The position numbers and the translations under genes are program-made. This document shows, in pieces, positions 10,708 through 29,021 of a DNA stretch of 32,000 nucleotides (its first letter is position 1; each line of letters starts with the position of its first letter). A model generated the notes under the pieces. That model was not told the DNA's origin and ran no database searches. It saw only the letters and a program-made list of their open reading frames with translations. Origin of the DNA: Methanococcus maripaludis (GTDB lineage Archaea; AGJL01; Methanococci; Methanococcales; Methanococcaceae); the NCBI RefSeq assembly GCF_002945325.1, contig NZ_CP026606.1:1680001-1712000 (forward strand), in the 5' to 3' direction.

Positions 10708-10903
10708 CCCTTTTCGAGTCCATGGTATATTTTATGATTTTGAGATTTTATATGGTTTCCGATATGATTTTGAAAAAGCAGTGATAATTCTCCGTTTTGG
10801 CGGGTTAAGAAGAGTATATTGATATTCATGGAATTAAATATTTAAGTTAAAATTTGTATGTTAATCATAAATTCCGTTGTTTTAACAAAAGAACCATTAA
10901 TAA

Positions 10904-11203
10904 TTAATATCTTTCAAGTTCATTTGCAATAACATTTAAAATTTCGTTTGTAAGCATGTTGACTTTTTCAGTTCTTTCTGAAACTTCGATCACTTTTTTC
11001 CTTAATCTTTCAGCATCACACTGTTCGATGTCTCTTGCTTTTAGTGTTTTTCTTTTGTCTTTTGCAGCATTTTCTTCAGCGATTTTTGTAGTGGTTACAA
11101 CCATTTCCTGTAAAATTTCAACTAATGCTACGACAGATTCAGCTGATACATTCATATCAGTATTTTCTTTCATAATTCTTTTAACGGTTCCTTTTGGTAT
11201 CAT
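10904..11203 (-). CDS. Archaeal histone-fold protein with a C-terminal coiled-coil extension of about 35 aa
   Basis: The histone fold reads MIPKGTVKRIMKENTDMNVSAESVVALVEILQEMVVTTTKIAEENAAKDKRKTLKARDIEQC. The extension reads DAERLRKKVIEVSERTEKVNMLTNEILNVIANELERY. ATG 11203 has AGAGGT 6 nt upstream; the track start 11242 adds 13 aa. Confidence 0.85.
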   Translation of the reverse strand: MIPKGTVKRIMKENTDMNVSAESVVALVEILQEMVVTTTKIAEENAAKDKRKTLKARDIEQCDAERLRKKVIEVSERTEKVNMLTNEILNVIANELERY

Positions 11204-11320
11204 AATAAGACCTCTTATTTTATCTTTAGAATCATATGGCATTTAAATTATTTAAACCTTATATAAAACAGTAAATCAAAAATGGGAAAATAACACAAAA
11301 GAATATTTAAAAAAAATAAA

Positions 11321-15698: not shown

Positions 15699-15986
15699 AA
15701 TTCCACCTTAGGATACTTTTCCATATAATATGTTATTCTCGTTTTTAAACTCTATGCTAATATAAAATTCAAATTGTCAAAGTATATCCAAAGACCAATA
15801 TTTAAATTATCCGCTCGAAATAATTTCAAATGTTCCGAATCGATTGAAATAAAGTTTTATAAAATTATAAAAAAATAGAATTTAATTAAAATGTTACTAA
15901 TTCAGTTGCGAGTTTTGCGAGTTTTTTTCTTTGTAATTTTAAAGACATTATGGTATTTTATAGGTTTTTCAGCATAACAATATTTT

Positions 15987-19562: not shown

Positions 19563-19584
19563 AATTCGTGTGTTGTGGGAAAAA

Positions 19585-20841
19585 ATGGTACTTTTAAAAA
19601 ATGGAAAAATCGTGTCTGAGAATAAAATAACTGAATCTGATATCTTAATCGAAGATGGAATAATTCAAAAAATTGAAAAAAATATTGATTATTCTGGTGA
19701 AATAATTGATTTAAAAGGAAATTATGTTTTTCCAGGAATAATTGATTCACACGTTCACTTTCGTTGGGGAAATCCCGAAAAAGAAGATTTTGTTTCCGGA
19801 AGTGAAGCTGCAATTGCTGGTGGAATTGTTTATGCAATAGATATGCCAAATAACACGCCTCCTGTAACTACAAAAGACATATTTTACAAAAAAATGAAAG
19901 AAGGAAATGAACAAAGCAAGATAAATTTGTATTTTGCTTACGGAGTTACGGAAAATAACTATTTAGAAAATGTCGAAGAAGCGATATTTTATAAAATTTT
20001 TATGGTAAAATCAGTCGGCGACCTTTTTATTAGTGATTACTCAAAATTAAGGGAAATTCTTGATCAAAACAAGATTTTTGCAATTCACGCAGAACATAAA
20101 AGTATAATTTCCGAAAATTCCAAAAAATACGAACTAAATAGTTTCGAAAACCACTGTAAAATCAGAAGTCGAGAAAGTGAGATTGAAGCAGTTAGGGAAG
20201 TTTTAAATGTTTTACAAAAAATTGATAAAGAAAGTAAAAATAAGCCTCACGTTCATTTCTGCCATATTTCAGTTAAAGAAGCGCTTGATTTAATAAAAAA
20301 TGCCAAAAAAACTTTTAAAAATGTAAAAGTTACTGTTGAAGTGTCCCCTCACCATTTATTTTTAAATTCAAAAATGGCCGAAGATTTGAAAGGATGTGGA
20401 AAATTTAACCCTCCATTAAGGGAAGAAGCAGATAATCTAGCACTATTAAATGGAATTATCGATGGAACGGTGGATATCGTTGCAACGGACCACGCGCCCC
20501 ATTTAATCGATGAAAAACTAAATTTGGTCGAAAACTGCCCTTCAGGAATTCCTGGAATCGAAACACTAGTGCCATTGATTATGAATTTGGTAAACGAAGA
20601 AAAAATTTCAATTTTTGATGCATACAGAGTTTTATCAAGAAATCCTTCAGAAATTTTTAAAATAAATAATAAGATCAAAGTTGGAAATAACGCGAATATG
20701 ACTGTTGTTGATATGGACAAAGAATACAAAATATCTGCCAAAGATTTTAAATCAAAGGCTAAATTCACGCCTTTTGAAGGAAAAACCGTTAAAGGAAAGC
20801 CTTCTGCAACATTGGTTAATGGGAAGATATATATATTATAA
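19585..20841 (+). CDS. pyrC: Dihydroorotase
   Basis: The metal ligands DSHVHFR and VATDHAPH are present, with the typical N-terminus [10 protein letters not shown]. The track start GTG 19570 adds 5 aa. Confidence 0.9.
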
Positions 20842-20888
20842 TCTTTCTAAAACATATTATACTATGTAAACTTTAGAACGGTGGTAAA

Positions 20889-20984
20889 ATGACGTATAGG
20901 TCGGAACAGTCGGAAACAAAAGTAGAATCATTATGTAAATTAAGTTCATTTGAATGTGTTGTTTTATTCCAGTGGTGGCAGTAA
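20889..20984 (+). CDS. Candidate trp leader peptide (31 aa, MTYRSEQSETKVESLCKLSSFECVVLFQWWQ)
   Basis: GGTGG (20880-20884) precedes ATG 20889 with the same GGTG-to-ATG spacing as the exporter gene. Tandem TGG TGG lies at 20973-20978, one codon before TAA 20982-20984. The ORF is below the ORF-track size cutoff and sits in the pyrC-trpC spacer. Confidence 0.35.
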   Translation: MTYRSEQSETKVESLCKLSSFECVVLFQWWQ

Positions 20985-21035
20985 TCACTGTGTAATTTGT
21001 TAGTGGACGCTATAGTCCGGTTAATTAGTATTTTT
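20970..21035 (+). promoter_or_regulatory. Attenuator-like set of overlapping RNA helices plus a U-tract
   Basis: Helix 1:2 pairs 20970-20976 with 20984-20990. Helix 2:3 pairs 20985-20990 with 21001-21006. Helix 3:4 pairs 21004-21008 with 21015-21019. A T5 run lies at 21031-21035. All pairings were found by eye. Confidence 0.25.
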
Positions 21036-21098
21036 GCAGTTGTTATCAAGAATTTAGAGATATCAGTATAGTTAATATTAATATATCTAACAATACGG

Positions 21099-21110
21099 AT
21101 TAATATAAAA
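21099..21110 (+). promoter_or_regulatory. TATA-like element proximal to trpC
   Basis: ATTAATATAAAA lies about 63 nt upstream of ATG 21173. In AT-rich DNA this match is weak evidence. Confidence 0.3.
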
Positions 21111-21172
21111 ATTCTAAGTATCGACTACACGGTTCATCAATTTATTCAAGATTTAAATTTTAGAGGGCAGTT

Positions 21173-21862
21173 ATGACCATAAATTTTAAAAAACAGGCAA
21201 ATGCCATAAAAAATTTTGACAAAAACCCAATAATCGCGGAAATTAAAGTTCATTCTCCAAAATATGGCGATTTGTTGAAAGGAAGATCTGAAATGGATAT
21301 TTTAAGAATATATGAAGAAGCTGGAGCAGTTGGAATTTCATATATTACTGATAAACAGCATTTCAACGGAAACTTTGACATGTTTAAAAAGATCTGCGAA
21401 AACACCGAACTTCCAGTTTTAAGAAAAGATTTTCTAACAACAAAAGACGAAATTGAAAAAACAGCAAGTGCCGGGGCAAGTACCGTTTTGATAATTGCAA
21501 GATTATTGAAAGAAAAAACAGCTGAATTTGTAGATTTTGCACTCGAATGCGGGCTTGATACGCTTGTTGAAGTTCATAACACAGAAGAAATTGAAATTGC
21601 TAAATCTACGAACACAACAATGATTGGAATAAACAACAGGGATATTTCAAAATTGGAACTTGATGATGGAACTGTTTCACTAACTGAAAATCTTGCAGAT
21701 TTAATTCCAAAAGACAGAATTCTTGTCAGTGAAAGTGGAATTGCTAATTTAACCGATTTAAAAACTGCATTAAAATATGCAGATGCTGCATTGATTGGAA
21801 CATCATTCATGACAGCCGAAAACCAAAACGAGTTCGTAAAAAGTTTTGTTGAGGGAAAATAA
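21173..21862 (+). CDS. trpC: Indole-3-glycerol-phosphate synthase
   Basis: Motifs IIAEIKVHSP, PVLRKDF, LVEVH, GINNRD and VSESGI are present. The SD AGAGGG lies 5 nt upstream. Confidence 0.9.
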   Translation: MTINFKKQANAIKNFDKNPIIAEIKVHSPKYGDLLKGRSEMDILRIYEEAGAVGISYITDKQHFNGNFDMFKKICENTELPVLRKDFLTTKDEIEKTASAGASTVLIIARLLKEKTAEFVDFALECGLDTLVEVHNTEEIEIAKSTNTTMIGINNRDISKLELDDGTVSLTENLADLIPKDRILVSESGIANLTDLKTALKYADAALIGTSFMTAENQNEFVKSFVEGK

Positions 21863-22827
21863 TGTTAAACAAACTAATTGAACGTGAGAATTTATCATTT
21901 GAAGAATCATATGAATTATTTAACATGCTTTTAAATGAAAGTGAAATGAGAATAGCAGCTTATTTGGTGGCATTACAGACAAAAGGCCTAACTGCTGATG
22001 AAATTGCAGGATTTGCAAAAGCAATGAGGGATAATGCAGTTAAAATTGACCTTGGGGAAGTTACTGACACTTGCGGAACTGGCGGGGACGGTTCAAAAAC
22101 AATAAACGTGAGCACAGCAGTTTCAATAATTCTTTCATGTTTTACAAAAGTTGCAAAACACGGAAACGTTTCAATTACTTCAAACAGTGGTTCGGCAAAT
22201 GTTTACGAAGCACTTGGCTGTAAAATTCCAGAAACTCCTGAAGATGCAAAAAAATCAATGGATAAAACAAATTTCGCATTTTTGTTTGCTCAAAAATACC
22301 ATCCTGCACTTAAAAAAATAATGCCTGTTAGAAACGAACTGAAAGTAAAAACAATATTTAATATTTTGGGACCTCTTGCAAACCCTGCAAACCCAAAATA
22401 CCAGATACTCGGAGTAAACTCTTCAGAATTATGTGATAATGTTGCAATTGCGTTATCAAAAGTTGGGGGCATTAAAAAAGCGCTTGTGGTATATGGTAAT
22501 GGACTTGATGAGTTAACTCCAAATGGCACTTCAAAGATAACTGAATATGACGGAAAATTTGACACTTACGAAGTAACTCCAAAAGACTTTGGATTGAACT
22601 ACTCAAAAATAATTCCTTGTGAAAGTCCTGATGAAAGTGCAAAAAGATTAATTGATGTATTTTCGGGAAAAATCAATGAAGACAGGAATTTTATATTGAT
22701 GAATGCTGCAGCTGCACTTTATACTTCAGAAATAGCGTCAGACTTCTTAGATGGTGTTGAAATTGCAAAAGAAGCGATCGAATCTGGAAAAGTCCTTAAA
22801 AAACTTGAGGAGATAAGAAATGTATAA
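21862..22827 (+). CDS. trpD: Anthranilate phosphoribosyltransferase
   Basis: Motifs CGTGGDGSKTINVST and KHGN are present. The gene overlaps trpC by 1 nt (TAATG). Confidence 0.93.
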   Translation: MLNKLIERENLSFEESYELFNMLLNESEMRIAAYLVALQTKGLTADEIAGFAKAMRDNAVKIDLGEVTDTCGTGGDGSKTINVSTAVSIILSCFTKVAKHGNVSITSNSGSANVYEALGCKIPETPEDAKKSMDKTNFAFLFAQKYHPALKKIMPVRNELKVKTIFNILGPLANPANPKYQILGVNSSELCDNVAIALSKVGGIKKALVVYGNGLDELTPNGTSKITEYDGKFDTYEVTPKDFGLNYSKIIPCESPDESAKRLIDVFSGKINEDRNFILMNAAAALYTSEIASDFLDGVEIAKEAIESGKVLKKLEEIRNV

Positions 22828-24139
22828 ATTGGATTATGTAAATCCTCTAAAACTTTATGGTGTTTTAAGGGATGAAGGAAAATATCCAGTAATGCTTGAA
22901 TCAAGAGCTAAAGGGCAGATTAATGCAAGGTACACCTATATTTCTTCAAATCCCGAATATATGCTCAGAATTGGTAATAAAACCAAAATGGACAACGAAA
23001 CGATTTCAAAAGAAAGCAACCCTTTCAAAGCTTTAAAAGAAAATTTCAAAGTTACTCAAAAAGGCGACAGATTCACCGGCGGATACGTTGGATATATTGC
23101 ATATGACTGTATCCATAACTACATTGGTGGAAAAATCGAGGAACCTTCGGTATTTGGATACTATGACCACATGTATGTTTACGATCATGAAACAAGGAAT
23201 TTTTACTACCATTCTGAAAATAACAACCCAGAAGAATTAAGAAATGCTGAATTAACTGTTGAAAAAGCAAAAAATTTCAAAATCGAAGAGGAAGACGGCG
23301 GAATTGAAGTTTTGGGTTGCGATGCGGACTTAGACGACTATGTAAAAATGGTTGAAAAAACTAAAGAATATATTTATGCAGGCGATGCTTTTCAGGTCGT
23401 TCCTTCAAGAGAATATCGCTTGAAAAATGAATTTTCTGCATTTCAATTGTATAGGAATCTTAGAAAAGTAAATCCAAGTCCGTACATGTTTTTGCTCGAA
23501 TTTGATAAGGACGTTGTTGGAGCATCACCTGAAACAATGGCTTCGGTTCAGAATAATATCTTAAAAGTAAACCCTATTGCAGGGACTACTGCAATTGGAA
23601 AAACTGAAAGCGAAACTCAAAAATTGGCAGAAGCACTCTTAAAGGACGAAAAAGAGCGAGCAGAACACATGATGCTTGTTGACCTTGCAAGAAACGATGT
23701 CAGAAAAGTTTCAAAATCTGGAAGTATTGTGCTTGAAAGGTTTTTCGATGTTGTAAGGTACAGCCATGTTCAGCACATCGAAAGTGAGGTGCTTGGAACA
23801 TTAAAAGACAATTCGACAATATTTGATGCAATAGAAGCTGCATTCCCGGCAGGAACTCTAACCGGAGCTCCAAAATTCAGAGCAATGGAAATTATTGATG
23901 AAGTTGAAAAATCAAGAAGAAAAATTTACGGCGGAGCTGTAGGTTATTTCTCAAACAGCGGCAATGCGGACCTTGCAATTGGAATTAGAATGGCAGAAAT
24001 TGACAGCGTTTGCAGAGTACGAGCAGGCGGAGGGGTTGTTGCTGACTCAGTACCTGAAAATGAATACTACGAAACAGAGCGGAAAATGGCCGCAATGATG
24101 AAAGCACTGGGTGTTCAAAATGATAGTGATAATAGATAA
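22820..24139 (+). CDS. trpE: Anthranilate synthase component I
   Basis: Motifs AFPAGTLTGAPKFRAMEII and GGAVGYF are present. The gene overlaps the trpD stop by 8 nt. Confidence 0.95.
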   Translation: MYKLDYVNPLKLYGVLRDEGKYPVMLESRAKGQINARYTYISSNPEYMLRIGNKTKMDNETISKESNPFKALKENFKVTQKGDRFTGGYVGYIAYDCIHNYIGGKIEEPSVFGYYDHMYVYDHETRNFYYHSENNNPEELRNAELTVEKAKNFKIEEEDGGIEVLGCDADLDDYVKMVEKTKEYIYAGDAFQVVPSREYRLKNEFSAFQLYRNLRKVNPSPYMFLLEFDKDVVGASPETMASVQNNILKVNPIAGTTAIGKTESETQKLAEALLKDEKERAEHMMLVDLARNDVRKVSKSGSIVLERFFDVVRYSHVQHIESEVLGTLKDNSTIFDAIEAAFPAGTLTGAPKFRAMEIIDEVEKSRRKIYGGAVGYFSNSGNADLAIGIRMAEIDSVCRVRAGGGVVADSVPENEYYETERKMAAMMKALGVQNDSDNR

Positions 24140-24716
24140 CAAAGATTCGTTTGTATGGAATTTGGCAGACTATGCATCGATTTATGATTCTGTAAAAGTT
24201 GTTCCAAACACGATTTCAATTGATGAGTTAAAAAAATTGAATCCTGATGGAATAATTATTTCACCAGGTCCCGGAGCTCCAGAAAACAAAAGAGATGTTG
24301 AAAACTGTCCTGAAATTATAAAAACTATGGATGTACCCGTTCTTGGAGTATGTCTTGGACACCAAACAATTGCACACATATTTGGCGGAAAAGTTGGAAG
24401 AATTCCTCCGGTTCACGGAAAATCAAGTTCTGTAACCCACGATTCAAAAGGAATCTTTAAAAATGTGAAAAATCCATTTACTGCTGGAAGATACCATTCT
24501 TTATCAGTTTTAAAAGTTCCTGAAAATTTTACAGTTACTGCAACGACTGATGACGGAACAGTCATGGGAATAAGGCATAATGATATGCCAATCGAAGGAG
24601 TTCAATTTCACCCTGAAAGTGTATTAACAGAATTTGAAGAAAAAGAAGGGCTAAAAATTATTGAAAATTTTGTGAAATTCGCTAAAACATATAAATCTTT
24701 TAAAAAGGAAATTTAA
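24120..24716 (+). CDS. trpG: Anthranilate synthase component II (glutamine amidotransferase)
   Basis: IVIIDNKDSF, the catalytic Cys in GVCLGHQ, and VQFHPES are present. ATG 24120 has GGGTG 6 nt upstream (track start GTG 24111). The gene overlaps trpE by 20 nt. Confidence 0.93.
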   Translation: MIVIIDNKDSFVWNLADYASIYDSVKVVPNTISIDELKKLNPDGIIISPGPGAPENKRDVENCPEIIKTMDVPVLGVCLGHQTIAHIFGGKVGRIPPVHGKSSSVTHDSKGIFKNVKNPFTAGRYHSLSVLKVPENFTVTATTDDGTVMGIRHNDMPIEGVQFHPESVLTEFEEKEGLKIIENFVKFAKTYKSFKKEI

Positions 24717-24726
24717 GTGAAAAATC

Positions 24727-25362
24727 ATGTTCATAAAAATTTGCGGAATAAAAACTCCAGAAGAACTAAGAATAGTTGAAAATTACGGCAGCGCTACCGG
24801 AGTAATTTTAGAATGTGCTTCAAAAAGAAGAATTGGTTTTGAAACAGCAAAAAATCTTGTAAATTTATCGAATATTCCTGTATTTGCAGTTTCAACAACA
24901 TTCGATATTTCAGTATGGGAAAATATTATTGAATTGACAGGTACGAACTATTTACAGATGCATTCGGATATCGACCAAAAAGCAATAGATTTCATTAAAA
25001 ATGAGTACGGATGCTTTATTATGAAATCGTTTAAAATTCCTGAAACAAGCGAATCACCTGAAATTGATGCTGAAAAAATTATTTCAGAAATTGAAACTTA
25101 TGAAGTTGATAGAATTTTATTGGATACTGGAAAAGGATGTGGGCAGATTCATGACCACAGAATAAGTCAAATGATTGCAAAAAAGTTTGACATTGTTCTT
25201 GCAGGGGGTCTTGATCCTGATAACGTATTAAAAATTGTAAAATCTGTAAAACCGTTTGGAGTTGACGTTTCAAGCGGAGTTGAGAATAATAATTCAAAGG
25301 ACGAAGAATTGATAAAAAAATTTTGTGAAAATGTAAAATTAGGTGAAAATTATGAAATGTGA
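24727..25362 (+). CDS. trpF: Phosphoribosylanthranilate isomerase
   Basis: The N-terminus is [14 protein letters not shown] and GVDVSSGVE are present. Confidence 0.88.
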
Positions 25363-26536
25363 AGGATACTTTGGAGAATACGGCGGGCAGTTTATCCCTG
25401 AAGTTTTGATGCCTGCAATCGACGAGCTTAAAGAAGCATATTTTGAATTGAAAGATGATGAAGACTTTCAAAATGAGCTTTCCTACTATTTGAAAAATTA
25501 TGCAGGACGTGAAACGCCGCTTTACTATGCTGAAAATTTGACCAAAAAGCTTGGCGGTGCAAAAATTTACTTAAAAAGGGAAGATTTACTTCACGGAGGG
25601 GCTCACAAAACTAATAATACTATCGGTCAAGCGCTGCTTGCTAAAAGAATGGGTAAAACAAGAATAATCGCAGAAACCGGTGCAGGACAGCACGGTGTTG
25701 GAACTTCAATGGCTGGAGCATTGTTTGGACTTGAAACTGAAATTTTCATGGGAAGACTTGATACCGAAAGGCAGCAACCAAACGTATTTAGAATGAAACT
25801 TCTCGGTGCAAAAGTAACTCCTGTTGATACAGGTTCAAAAGTTTTAAAAGATGCGGTAAACGAAGCAATGAGGAACTGGACTGCAACATTTGAAAACACG
25901 CATTATTTAATGGGAACTGTTATGGGGCCACACCCTTTCCCAACGATTGTTAGAGATTTCCAGTCTGTAATTGGAAAAGAAGTTAAAAAACAAATAATGG
26001 AACAGGAAGGAAGACTTCCAGATCACTTGGTTGCATGTATTGGTGGTGGAAGTAACGCACTTGGTTTATTCCATGCATTTATTCAAGATAAAGACGTTAG
26101 AATGGTTGGAATTGAAGCTGCGGGAAAAGGACTCAACACAAGCCTTCACGGAGCCTCCATTTCAAAAGGAAAGAAAGGAGTTCTTCACGGAATGCTTTCA
26201 TACTTCTTACAGGATGAAGATGGCCAAATTGAAGAAGCATACAGTATATCAGCAGGATTGGACTATCCTGGAATTGGCCCAGAACACGCATATTTACACG
26301 ATTCTGGAAGAGCAGAATATGCATCAGCAACTGATGATCAGGCATTAAGCGCATTCATGGAACTTACAAGAAGTGAGGGAATAATTCCAGCTTTGGAATC
26401 ATCACACGCGGTAGCTTACGCAATTGAAAATGCCGGAAACATGGATAAAGATGAAATAATGGTCATAAACCTTTCAGGAAGGGGCGACAAGGATTTAAAC
26501 ACCGTAATTGACATCATGCAAAAAAGAGGGATGTAA
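25352..26536 (+). CDS. trpB: Tryptophan synthase beta chain
   Basis: The PLP-lysine motif is [16 protein letters not shown] and GGGSNA are present. ATG 25352 has AGGTGA 5 nt upstream (track start GTG 25343). The gene overlaps trpF by 11 nt. Confidence 0.96.
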
Positions 26537-27313
26537 ATGAATAAACCAGTGTTAGTCAGTTTTTTAGTTTCTGGAGATCCAAATCCAGATGCAACATTGA
26601 AATTTATGAAAACACTCGATAAATATTCGGGAGTAATTGAACTAGGAATCCCGTTTAGCGACCCTGTTGCAGATGGGCCAACAATTCAGGCAGCAGATGT
26701 AAGGTCTCTATCTAATAAATTTAAAATTTCTAAATCATTTGATATATTGAAAGAATTTAGAAAAGAATCAAGTACTCCTGTAATTTTGATGACATACTAC
26801 AATCCTGTATTTAAAAGAGGAATTGAAAACTTTGTAATTCAAGCAAAAGAAGCAGGTGCAAATGGACTTATTATTGTTGATTTGCCACTTCAAGAAGCAA
26901 CAGAATATCGAGAAATCTGTAAAAAACACGAAATGGGAACGGTATTTCTTGCAGCACCAAACACTCCAGAAGAACGTTTAAAAATATCTGATGAAGCAAG
27001 CACTGAATTTTTGTACCTTATTTCAACTTTTGGAATCACAGGTGCAAGGGATACCTTCGAACAGATGACATTTGATTTTATTAAACGAGCAAGAACAACT
27101 TGCAAAGGAAAAATCTGCGTTGGATTTGGAATTTCAAAAGGAAGTCATGCAGAAAGTTTAATTGAACAGGGTGCTGATGGAGTAATTGTTGGAAGTGCAT
27201 TTGTAGATATTATTAAAAATTATGGGGATTCAGAAGAAGCACTTGTTAAATTAGAAGAACTTGCAAAAGAATTAAGTGAAGGAATCGATAAAGGATACGG
27301 AAAAAGAAAATAA
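26537..27313 (+). CDS. trpA: Tryptophan synthase alpha chain
   Basis: Motifs [17 protein letters not shown] and VGFGIS are present. The ATG directly abuts the trpB stop (TAAATG). Confidence 0.93.
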
Positions 27314-28560: not shown

Positions 28561-28772
28561 AAAATCCCTTTGAAATTTTTAAATTACATTTTTTCAAATT
28601 TATCCATATTTGGGCTTTTTTTACAAATAATACTTATGTATTCAATGAATTTAAACTTATTTTATGGATTTAGTAAAGTTTGAAAGATTTAGATATATTT
28701 GGGAATCTAGAAAGATATATAATATAAATTGAACAGATGTAAAGCTTCAACTTTAAATCATAAGGGGTTTTT

Positions 28773-29021
28773 ATGAATATAATCTATATTTTGATAGTGG
28801 GTTTAATTATCGGATATTTATTTAAAAGCAGTCTTGAAAAAGTCGATTTATCAAAACCAACAAATTTAGCACTTCTTCTTTTGATATTTTTTATGGGTGT
28901 GGAAGCTGGAAAAGTCGATTTAAATGCATTTTCAACGTTTGTAGTTTCAATGGAATTTTCAGTCATTGTAATGGTTACAAGCCTCCTTGTGGCAGTATTT
29001 TTAGGGGGTAGGTTCAGATGA
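28773..29021 (+). CDS. LysO/DUF340-family membrane protein, small subunit
   Basis: The 82-aa protein has 3 TMs and reads ILIVGLIIGYLFK...LLLLIFFMGVEAGK. It overlaps the next gene by ATGA. Confidence 0.6.
   Translation: MNIIYILIVGLIIGYLFKSSLEKVDLSKPTNLALLLLIFFMGVEAGKVDLNAFSTFVVSMEFSVIVMVTSLLVAVFLGGRFR

Follow-up and report, generated by a model that had tools for sequence, protein, structure and literature searches.

Leader-peptide attenuation is the textbook regulatory use of transcription-translation coupling, and outside the candidate described here we know of such switches only from Bacteria. The E. coli trpL leader has 14 codons. Archaeal RNA polymerase terminates at oligo-U or via aCPSF1/FttA, not at hairpin-dependent intrinsic terminators. 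Two archaeal trp regulators have been named, TrpY in Methanothermobacter and Tar (TK0271) in Thermococcus, and little else is known in Archaea (PMC6737238). Both act on the pathway considered here, but they are DNA-binding proteins at promoters, whereas the element that we describe is a translatable ORF with Trp codons. Our full-text literature searches, which reach few subscription-journal papers, turned up no account of a trp leader peptide in an archaeon.

The locus lies in a 32,000-nt stretch of Methanococcus maripaludis contig NZ_CP026606.1 (hereafter, the window). Like the E. coli trpL attenuator (RF00513), it has a short ORF, preceded by a Shine-Dalgarno-like sequence, directly before the trp operon, and this ORF carries neighbouring Trp codons close to its stop. 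As in trpL, the Trp codons occupy the first arm of a hairpin, with the stop separating the two arms, another hairpin and a U-run follow downstream, and a premature 3′ end is found in vivo. It differs from trpL in its archaeal host and in lacking any sequence or covariance-model similarity. Its leader is 31 codons long with the Trp codons just one codon from the stop, the 2:3 pairing is weak, and the downstream hairpin stands 5–12 nt from a U5 tract with the mapped 3′ end in its loop.

Other bacterial systems share single features with the locus or its relatives. As in tnaC/Rho-dependent control of E. coli tna, a ribosome arrested at the leader end could hide RNA 3′ of the stop from a termination factor, and a U-run abuts the stop in Methanothermococcus and in two metagenomic relatives, L027 and L005. 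TnaC, however, senses free Trp and induces a catabolic operon, whereas the operon here is biosynthetic and would be switched on by Trp-tRNA starvation; aCPSF1/FttA or a nuclease would act in place of Rho, and M. maripaludis itself has no U-run after the stop and an aCPSF1-insensitive 3′ end. As in E. coli pyrBI, the leader ORF of Methanothermococcus and L027 runs into a strong hairpin (−14.9 kcal/mol) with U5-6 directly behind it; its final codons supply the 3′ arm, and a ribosome on those codons would therefore exclude the hairpin. Unlike pyrBI, which senses UTP through RNA polymerase pausing and tight coupling, the sensed codons here would sit inside the hairpin arm, which poses a timing problem unless transcript ending is slow or factor-mediated. 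Finally, L027 and L005 appear leaderless, as are the mycobacterial poly-Cys uORF attenuators (bioRxiv 10.1101/834739).

A Trp-ended reading frame ahead of trpC

The leader region and its surroundings contain the following features:

19570–20841: amidohydrolase/dihydroorotase gene (pyrC), the upstream flank of the leader
20827–20852, + strand: candidate leader promoter P1, a TATA-like ATATATATATTATAA overlapping the pyrC stop codon, then a TTTCTAAAA motif
20880–20884, + strand: Shine-Dalgarno-like GGTGG, 4–5 nt ahead of the leader ATG
20889–20984, + strand: leader ORF of 31 codons, MTYRSEQSETKVESLCKLSSFECVVLFQWWQ and stop, 188 nt upstream of trpCDEGFBA
20973–20978, + strand: tandem Trp codons UGG UGG, followed by CAG and by TAA at 20982–20984
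21079–21090, + strand: conserved TATA-like island TAATATATCTAA between leader and trpC
21173–27313, + strand: trpC-trpD-trpE-trpG-trpF-trpB-trpA operon (Pfam matches), the presumed regulated target

An initial annotation had described the GGTGG, an ATG at 20889, the encoded peptide and a TGG TGG pair one codon ahead of TAA, and the sequence bears out each of these. The GGTG-to-ATG spacing is indeed that of the gene at 1639, a member of the MMPL family (5 nt in both), and the region is richer in G+C, as had been suggested: 0.34 in the ORF and 0.43 in 20964–21019, compared with 0.255 in the rest of the spacer and 0.10–0.31 in other intergenic stretches. Gene callers and NCBI annotate the ORF as "hypothetical protein." It is the sole ATG-started ORF of 8–70 codons with at least two Trp residues in its last six codons in the window (64 kb over both strands). 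At the composition of the spacer, a 31-codon open frame has a chance probability of about 0.06 and TGGTGG one of about 1.4e-4 per codon pair. To gauge the background we can also use a metagenome scan with a TrpC alignment, whose patterns were too generic and returned mostly distant bacterial and archaeal trpC loci; these, mostly distant as they are, yielded 29 Trp-ended short ORFs per 463 kb. The leader ORF is beyond chance, and the decisive evidence is its conservation across species. Two minus-strand ORFs in the same region (20857–20988 and 20873–21049) were rejected, being absent in M. vannielii and M. voltae.

The presumed target is poor in tryptophan. The claim that its seven enzymes contain only three Trp codons holds: we count 3 Trp in 2056 residues, one each in TrpG, TrpF and TrpB, whereas the remaining long ORFs of the window have 47 in 7245, a 4–5-fold depletion in the Trp enzymes. 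The homologues in strain S2, MMP1008–MMP1002, have been defined as a single operon, apart from MMP1010–MMP1009. No regulator gene adjoins the trp operon, its neighbours being pyrC and an Nre-family gene.

We searched the locus for known regulatory elements. Rfam at gathering thresholds gave no match anywhere in the window, including to RF00513 (Trp_leader) and the T-box RF00230; at E ≤ 10, the interval 20780–21230 returned just four chance-level matches to unrelated families, and tRNA/tmRNA scans found nothing relevant. The TRP-box TGTACA occurs four times in the window and not once in the spacer (20842–21172), and no divergent trpY gene adjoins the operon; on the evidence of the spacer and the neighbouring genes, we rejected TrpY-type repression. 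A TRAP-like (G/U)AG array was likewise rejected, with just three UAG triplets about 12 nt apart. We also dropped a T-box in which UGGU would pair with the tRNA ACCA end, since any UGGUGG pairs so and there is no Stem I or covariance-model match.

Two candidate promoters flank the leader. The P1 motif TATWTATAYTAWA...TTTCTAWA aligns across M. maripaludis, the uncultured Methanococcus sp. L025, M. vannielii and M. voltae despite differing upstream genes, and P1 may serve as the leader promoter. The TAATATATCTAA island is the only conserved island of the AT-rich spacer in the Methanococcus alignment, and its Methanothermococcus counterpart, AACTTATATATTT, is stronger and lies about 62 nt ahead of trpC. 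It is possible that this island is a second, proximal promoter (P2), perhaps the true trpC promoter, in which case the leader would be a separate upstream unit. Published dRNA-seq tables (PLoS Genet 2019, NAR 2023 supplements) list no transcription start site for the leader or trpC and have no entry for MMP1008 or S2 coordinates 9927xx–9930xx.

Conservation of the leader among relatives

Aligning the spacers of relatives, as the initial annotation had proposed, showed that the ORF, the Shine-Dalgarno and start, and the terminal Trp codons are kept in M. vannielii, M. voltae, another Methanococcus and Methanothermococcus. Homologues precede trpC in 10 distinct lineages or variants. The M. vannielii leader ends VVLFQWWQ, and those of M. 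voltae (two or three strains) have 41–43 codons and end VVL[FS]QWWH. The uncultured Methanococcus sp. L025 also carries a homologous ORF ahead of trpC. In Methanothermococcus okinawensis IH1, Ax23, S013 and L110 the leaders end NV[AV]WRWW. Metagenomic relatives carry shorter versions: MKKLNNSFLGKYPTWWC, ending TWWC, in L027, and the 8-codon MFLCWWSE in L005.

Across these forms, W-W or W-R-W-W falls 0–2 codons from the stop in 12 of 12 variants, and M1 and one Trp are the only invariant columns. N-termini, length (8–43 codons) and the upstream gene all vary, and the reading frame survives in-frame length changes. The start signal is kept as well: every Methanococcus and Methanothermococcus leader has a GGTG core 5–8 nt ahead of its start codon. 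In L027 and L005, a TATA box some 30 nt ahead of the ATG suggests a leaderless start instead. The gene upstream is DUF2085 in M. vannielii and L025 and a divergent Pyr_excise gene in M. voltae. Judged by this synteny, the leader element travels with trpC, not with the upstream gene. No Trp-ended leader was present in some relatives (L003, L004, L006, L007, L029 and L111), nor at the Archaeoglobi/Thermococci-like trpC loci L008–L013, L030, L031 and L034.

Conservation at the nucleotide level is also high near the Trp codons. A 65-nt block 3′ of them is nearly invariant in three Methanococcus species, and its substitutions are all unpaired or pairing-preserving (simulation p = 0.006, post hoc). 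Within it lies one element shared between genera:

20997–21005, + strand: conserved 9-mer TTGTTAGTG, 13 nt past the leader stop; neither strand of the window has a second copy

In Methanothermococcus L001, L002 and L110 an identical TTGTTAGTG stands 12 nt beyond the end of the leader, and M. voltae has the variant TTGTTAGCG.

These patterns raise the question of whether the conserved block is instead a non-coding element, such as an RNA to which a protein or tRNA binds, or an operator or promoter in the DNA for a Trp regulator, with the ORF and its Trp codons incidental or constrained at the nucleotide level. Conservation of 20958–21019 is indeed higher than a leader peptide would require: V-V-L-F-Q-W-W is invariant at its synonymous sites in three species, as is the 12-nt GUGUAAUUUGUU, the 9-mer is common to both genera at a fixed offset, and known archaeal trp control, by TrpY and Tar, is protein-based (PMC6737238). 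Yet Methanothermococcus, L027 and L005 differ entirely in nucleotides and still keep the ORF, start signal and terminal Trp codons, the Shine-Dalgarno, start and frame are maintained through indels, and the spacer lacks an Rfam match, a TGTACA or a TRAP-like site. We regard a purely non-coding element as unlikely.

The ORF might also be a stand-alone small-protein gene, maybe with a dual function like that of the bacterial peTrpL, whose hydrophobic, Trp-ended peptide of 30–43 residues acts in trans from its own promoter and terminator with no effect in cis on trpC. Sinorhizobium offers an example of a trp leader peptide that acts in trans (PMC7298713). Such a gene would fit with the promoter-like element and Shine-Dalgarno of the ORF, both conserved, with the hairpin and U-tract that follow it, and with the possible separate promoter before trpC. 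N-termini drift even among M. maripaludis strains; the C-terminal KLSSFECVVLFQWWQ is invariant within the species, which would again fit a functional peptide. However, this C-terminal conservation coincides with RNA helices, and the N-terminal halves drift freely. The peptide ranges from 8 to 43 residues, the Trp codons alone are common to all forms, and in each context that we examined the leader was strictly linked to trpC. A small protein acting only in trans is, in our judgment, distinctly unlikely.

RNA structure and transcript ends

To ask what the leader RNA might form, we folded the region and mapped the published 3′ end onto the predicted structures:

20964–20995, + strand: Trp-codon hairpin 1:2 (MFE and alifold), −8.6 kcal/mol, z = −1.65
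20999–21025, + strand: downstream hairpin T (core 3:4 UGGAC-GCUAUA-GUCCG, 21004–21019; outer GUUA:UAAU)
21013, + strand: in vivo RNA 3′ end, a Term-seq "primary TTS" of S2 at genome position 992870 (PMC8716108, Supplementary files 1 and 2)
21031–21035, + strand: U5 tract inside a GTATTTT(T)GC motif that each of the five Methanococcus sequences keeps although the spacer varies

In hairpin 1:2, CAGUGGU (the Gln and first Trp codons) pairs with AUCACUG just past the stop, with a UUAU:GUAA extension, and the stop codon sits in the loop and 3′ arm. All 11 of its pairs are retained in the five sequences, with one U:A to U.G change. Hairpin T has an energy of −6.5 kcal/mol for the core and −7.2 when extended, and forms in all ribosome-masked folds. 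One of its G:C pairs has become A:U by compensatory change and three other changes affect one side only; pairing survives all of them, while the loop varies. A gap of 5–12 nt separates T from the U5 tract, leaving T without a directly adjoining U-run. Overall, the folding energy of the region is unremarkable (z = −0.71).

Trp-codon hairpins are present in three of the four leader forms, the 8-codon L005 having none. Analogues occur in Methanothermococcus (z = −3.3 for its −14.9 kcal/mol structure) and in L027. In all three forms the Trp-codon hairpin is followed by a U-rich tract, by a second conserved hairpin with a U-tract, or by both. In Methanothermococcus and L027 the strong hairpin includes the Trp codons themselves and directly abuts the U5-6 run. 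That run immediately adjoins the stop codon, where a ribosome stalled at the final Trp codons could reach it; a further U4-5 lies at +36 to +43 after the stop.

We then considered alternative pairing in the style of E. coli. The 1:2, 2:3 and 3:4 pairings can all be drawn and are 100% kept in the five Methanococcus sequences. The 2:3 antiterminator, however, amounts at best to 4–5 bp and −1.3 kcal/mol, versus −7.2 for hairpin T, and after this energy evaluation we downgraded it to a weak possibility. Helices 1:2 and T alone can explain the M. voltae substitutions, and no mutually exclusive equivalent was found in Methanothermococcus.

Overlaying published S2 Term-seq data, another check that had been suggested, revealed sense transcripts across the region, about 28% of which end at 21013. 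This site, 29 nt past the leader stop and 172 nt past that of pyrC, falls within the loop of hairpin T. It has 32 head reads, a TTE of 0.28 (0.24 on aCPSF1 depletion) and no U4 tracts, and its sequence from −30 to +5 is AUCACUGUGUAAUUUGUUAGUGGACGCUAU|AGUCC (PMC8716108). The end shows no aCPSF1 dependence; it may mark termination, a pause or cleavage, and RNA processing or degradation could also account for it. At the U5 tract (21031–21035) the same S2 tables list no 3′ end (PMC8716108).

The Term-seq authors assign the 21013 end to MMP1009 (pyrC), giving it a 172-nt 3′ UTR (PMC8716108). Taken at face value, this filing would make the region the 3′ UTR or terminator of pyrC and the ORF a chance open frame, short ORFs being abundant in AT-rich spacers. 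Synteny contradicts this: the element persists beside DUF2085 in M. vannielii and L025 and beside a divergent gene in M. voltae. The S2 tables also contain a distinct pyrC 3′ end 17 nt past its stop, and the probability that an open frame with terminal WW would recur by chance in several diverged lineages is negligible. A pyrC 3′ UTR is accordingly the least credible account of the locus, and we consider it extremely improbable.

A model for Trp-dependent transcript ending

Given the conservation and structure of the leader, we think it probable that the ORF is a Trp-sensing leader peptide gene, an archaeal trpL analogue that has a promoter of its own before trpCDEGFBA and modulates the early ending of transcripts. 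A ribosome would translate the 31 codons of the leader. When charged tRNA-Trp is scarce, it would stall with UGG-UGG in the decoding site, covering the Trp-codon hairpin together with the nucleotides that directly follow the stop, so that these can neither fold nor be bound, and transcription would run on into trpC. When Trp-tRNA is plentiful, the ribosome would reach UAA and depart; the Trp-codon hairpin and the downstream hairpin with its U-tract would then form, and part of the transcripts would end early, the 3′ end at 21013 being one such early end. Stalling and its effect on read-through are what we would expect from this arrangement, and the ending machinery may be an intrinsic U-tract, an aCPSF1/FttA-type factor or another nuclease.

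The initial annotation had taken the ORF to be a Trp-sensing upstream ORF controlling trpCDEGFBA. The predictions of this claim that we could check, on the conserved ORF, Shine-Dalgarno and Trp codons and on sense transcripts with an early 3′ end, all agreed with it and support it in part; the weak 2:3 pairing, a hairpin without an adjoining U-run and the possible P2 leave the proposed control of the operon less secure. Spacing adds a constraint. With bacterial-type spacing between ribosome and RNA polymerase, no ribosome would be on the Trp codons while RNA polymerase is on a stop-abutting U-run, so a slow or factor-dependent step must be assumed.

A broader form of the model has, in our estimate, an even chance of being right. 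It holds that Methanococcaceae use genuine ribosome-mediated attenuation, in which hairpin-embedded tandem Trp codons couple tRNA-Trp charging to early ending of trp transcripts via the archaeal termination/cleavage machinery. It would exist in at least three architectures: two hairpins in Methanococcus, a Trp-codon terminator hairpin with U6 in Methanothermococcus, and leaderless mini-ORFs of 8–17 codons in uncultured relatives.

The locus is the best candidate so far for a ribosome-sensed leader-peptide switch in Archaea, and if the model is true, it would be the first leader-peptide attenuator in the domain. In practical terms, it could supply a Trp-responsive expression element for methanogen engineering, and its combination of a hairpin, a U-tract and a short ORF that ends in cognate codons offers a template for searching other archaeal amino-acid operons. 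If validated, it would provide a natural, genetically tractable assay in M. maripaludis for archaeal coupling, aCPSF1/FttA polarity and RNA polymerase pausing. It would also mean that the position of an archaeal ribosome on nascent mRNA can decide the fate of an RNA polymerase that does not use hairpin-dependent intrinsic termination.

The leader ORF and its setting

The 331-nt spacer between pyrC and trpC houses a 31-codon ORF with tandem Trp codons near its stop, hereafter the leader. The initial annotation had read it as a Trp-sensing upstream ORF ahead of the trp operon, and the positions that it gave for GGTGG, ATG, reading frame, TGG TGG and TAA were all reproduced from the sequence.

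Features of the leader spacer and its borders
19570-20841: amidohydrolase/dihydroorotase gene (pyrC), upstream border
20880-20884, +: Shine-Dalgarno (SD)-like GGTGG upstream of the leader ATG
20889-20984, +: leader ORF, 31 codons (ATG 20889, TAA 20982-20984), product MTYRSEQSETKVESLCKLSSFECVVLFQWWQ
20973-20978, +: tandem Trp codons TGG TGG
20964-20995: hairpin 1:2, -8.6 kcal/mol; the Gln-Trp1 codons pair with sequence just past the stop
21004-21019 (core, -6.5 kcal/mol), 20999-21025 (extended, -7.2 kcal/mol): hairpin T, from MFE and alignment folds
21079-21090: TATA-like island between leader and trpC, TAATATATCTAA in M. maripaludis, from alignment
21173-27313: trpC-D-E-G-F-B-A, downstream border

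Two compositional claims of the initial annotation also held. The seven Trp enzymes contain three Trp in 2056 residues versus 47 in 7245 for the window's other long ORFs, a 4-5-fold depletion. The leader part of the spacer is richer in G+C (0.34 in the ORF, 0.43 in the block after it) than other intergenic DNA (0.10-0.31); the remaining spacer is at 0.255. The window comes from M. maripaludis (GCA_013761225.1), and its TrpC is 97-99% identical to that of other strains of the species. Neighboring trp genes overlap or abut, for example the trpC stop and trpD start at 21862 and trpD with trpE (8 nt of overlap), an arrangement that suggests coupled translation. The longest pyrC ORF has a GTG start at 19570 (423 aa), and the annotated gene in the source genome starts 15 nt downstream (418 aa). 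Unusually long intergenic stretches at 10708-11320 (613 nt), 28561-29017 (457 nt) and 15699-15986 (288 nt) gave no Rfam or tRNA matches.

Could such an ORF arise by chance in a pyrC 3' UTR? The spacer's composition gives 0.088 stop codons per codon, so an open frame of 31-43 codons is expected 2-6% of the time. When we filtered for ORFs with an ATG start, 8-70 codons and at least two Trp within the last six residues, the leader alone passed in the window (both strands). The plus strands of 12 other archaeal trpC loci gave one match, again directly upstream of trpC, and control loci of ~230 kb (463 kb over both strands), mostly bacterial and more GC-rich, gave 29. We regard a chance ORF in a pyrC 3' UTR as very improbable.

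Leaders in relatives

The trpC loci compared here came from scanning a genome collection and from looking up exact TrpC homologues. Every tabulated lineage has a Trp-ended ORF upstream of trpC, preceded by an SD except in loci L027 and L005.

Leader peptides in relatives (each followed by a stop codon)
M. vannielii SB: MTYYLSQKFNTINNSGFKLNLVEFVVLFQWWQ
Uncultured Methanococcus (L025/L112): MTYHMPEQSGNKIVLGSKLTSFECVVLFQWWQ
M. voltae, two loci: ...SKIVVLSQWWH and ...SEIVVLFQWWH, 43 codons
Methanothermococcus okinawensis IH1: MELSNRTRLSTIYKMDTFFNNYSNVAWRWW
Methanothermococcus Ax23: MELSNIKRTKISNIYKMDSFFSNHSNVVWRWW
Methanothermococcus MAG S013 (L001): ...SNVAWRW, with two stops
Metagenomic L110: MKIVSVMCDMQRIKTSNIYKMDSFFSNHSNVVWRWW
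Divergent metagenomic L027: MKKLNNSFLGKYPTWWC
L005: MFLCWWSE, 8 codons, 30 nt before trpC

Conservation in other Methanococcus, on which the initial annotation had made its reading depend, was found: ORF, start signal and terminal Trp codons are kept in M. vannielii, M. voltae and L025. A peptide-profile search added three further variants and exact look-up found five M. maripaludis alleles, all annotated "hypothetical protein". Upstream of the leader, M. maripaludis and M. okinawensis have pyrC, M. vannielii and L025 have a DUF2085 gene, and M. voltae has a divergent gene, so the element goes together with trpC. No leader was found where trpC sits inside a different operon or is part of a fusion (L003, L004, L006, L007, L111), in L029 with its different operon layout, or in Archaeoglobi/Thermococci-like trpC loci. 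The 394-residue product called in metagenomic L111 (1242-2426) joins CofD and TrpC domains (PF01933 + PF00218), either by gene fusion or through a missed stop or frameshift.

The peptide alignment has two invariant columns, the initiator Met and one Trp, and a second Trp and one Val are nearly invariant. N-terminal halves vary even among M. maripaludis strains and length runs from 8 to 43 codons, with the frame always kept. That the product is a small protein acting in trans seems to us quite unlikely. Minus-strand ORFs overlapping the leader show no conservation in relatives and were ruled out as conserved genes.

RNA structure and transcript ends

Downstream of the Trp codons, a ~65-nt block is nearly invariant in three Methanococcus species (TTGTTGTTTTATTCCAGTGGTGGCAGTAATCACTGTGTAATTTGTTAGTGGACGCTATAGTCC); next come a variable spacer and, conserved again, a GTATTTT(T)GC U-tract. 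In Methanothermococcus and L027, U5-6 abuts the leader stop codon, then come TAGTTGTTAGTGTAAATATTAAATG and a second U4-5 tract. The 9-mer TTGTTAGTG lies 12-13 nt past the leader stop in Methanococcus and Methanothermococcus and occurs once in the window. Methanothermococcus-type loci carry an extra exact copy within trpC (L001 1116, L002 3503, L110 1036, L111 2284), which may be coincidental coding sequence.

MFE and alignment folds give two hairpins in the M. maripaludis leader RNA, the Trp-codon hairpin 1:2 and the downstream hairpin T (core 3:4). All pairs of both are retained in five sequences; in hairpin T, a G:C pair is replaced by a compensatory A:U, three one-sided changes preserve pairing, and the loop is variable. 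Hairpins 1:2 and T alone can account for the M. voltae substitutions, and in a simulation of five random substitutions, at least four in paired positions with no pair broken had p = 0.006 (a post hoc test). The fold as a whole is not notably stable (z = -0.71). The Methanothermococcus Trp codons make up the 3' arm of a strong hairpin that runs directly into U6 (-14.9 kcal/mol, z = -3.3; -10.9 kcal/mol in M. okinawensis), and L027 has a similar hairpin-U5 layout (-7.8 kcal/mol). Folding found no Trp-codon hairpin in L005. In Methanococcus, Methanothermococcus and L027 alike, the Trp codons sit in a hairpin, and either a U-rich tract or another hairpin with a U-tract comes soon after. A non-coding RNA or DNA element, in which the ORF is incidental, is in our judgment unlikely.

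In M. maripaludis S2, the trp operon (MMP1008-MMP1002, of which MMP1006-MMP1008 are the window's trpE, trpD and trpC) is a unit distinct from MMP1010-MMP1009 (PMC10450193). S2 Term-seq tables file a "primary TTS" under MMP1009, 172 nt past the pyrC stop, with the -30 to +5 sequence AUCACUGUGUAAUUUGUUAGUGGACGCUAU|AGUCC; it has 32 head reads, no U4 tract, and a TTE (1 - reads[+2]/reads[-2]) of 0.28, or 0.24 on aCPSF1 depletion (PMC8716108). A second pyrC-assigned end lies 17 nt past the pyrC stop (window 20858), and the tables list none at the U5 tract (PMC8716108). The primary end converts to window 21013, within the loop of hairpin T and 29 nt past the leader stop. This overlay, also proposed in the initial annotation, shows that the leader region is sense-transcribed and that some transcripts end just past the leader, by termination, pausing or cleavage; from the TTE, ~72% run past 21013. 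The published dRNA-seq tables examined list no TSS for the region. With UAA in the A site, the P-site codon begins 34 nt before 21013 (20979-21013), which is about the shortest ribosome-RNAP spacing seen in bacterial collided expressomes; the match may be a coincidence.

Deleting the RNA chaperone TRAM0076 in S2 raised trpC reads ~4-fold (2095 vs 494), trpD ~3.5-fold and neighboring pyrC 1.7-fold (PMC6705878 S1 Dataset). The rise in trpC and trpD indicates that the trp operon is clearly regulated; a tie to leader RNA folding is speculative.

Proposed mechanism and candidate promoters

Conserved start signal, frame and terminal Trp codons, an otherwise free peptide, strict linkage to a Trp-poor trp operon, structured RNA and a premature 3' end are the signature of a leader-peptide sensor. 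We think the leader is probably a cis-regulatory ORF sensing Trp-tRNA. A 2019 paper described archaeal trp regulation as little known beyond TrpY, and itself added the activator Tar (PMC6737238). In full-text searches of literature that takes in few subscription journals, neither an archaeal trp leader peptide nor ribosome-mediated attenuation in Archaea came up.

We favor a mechanism based on ribosome occupancy, which fits all architectures save possibly L005. A stalled ribosome would occupy the Trp-codon hairpin and the sequence abutting the stop codon, keeping the RNA from folding or factors from reaching it; a ribosome that terminated normally would depart, and the hairpins and U-tracts would promote early transcript ending. 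This is closer to tnaC-type masking than to the E. coli three-helix switch. A classical 1:2/2:3/3:4 switch is possible in Methanococcus but would be energetically weak: the 2:3 pairing (20985-20989 with 21002-21006) is retained in all sequences, yet reaches only -1.3 kcal/mol. Hairpin T still forms in folds with ribosome footprints masked.

A TATA-like box and a TTTCTAWA motif upstream of the leader are alignable in M. maripaludis, L025, M. vannielii and M. voltae, which suggests a promoter dedicated to the leader. In L027 and L005, the leader ATG lacks an SD and has a canonical TATA box ~30 nt ahead of it, suggesting leaderless mRNAs. At L005 2878-2970, the 8-codon ORF starts ~31 nt past a canonical TTTATATA box; U4 and U5 runs come next, then trpC without a visible SD, and trpD does not come after trpC.

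The rest of the Methanococcus spacer is poorly conserved, with one exception, the TATA-like island ATATATYTRA. Its Methanothermococcus counterpart, AACTTATATATTT, is strongly conserved ~62 nt before trpC (about 62-110 nt in L001/L002/L110/L023). The island may serve as an additional trp promoter, close to trpC. In that case, a basal promoter would be supplemented by attenuated transcription reading through from the leader promoter; alternatively, the leader might form a unit of its own.
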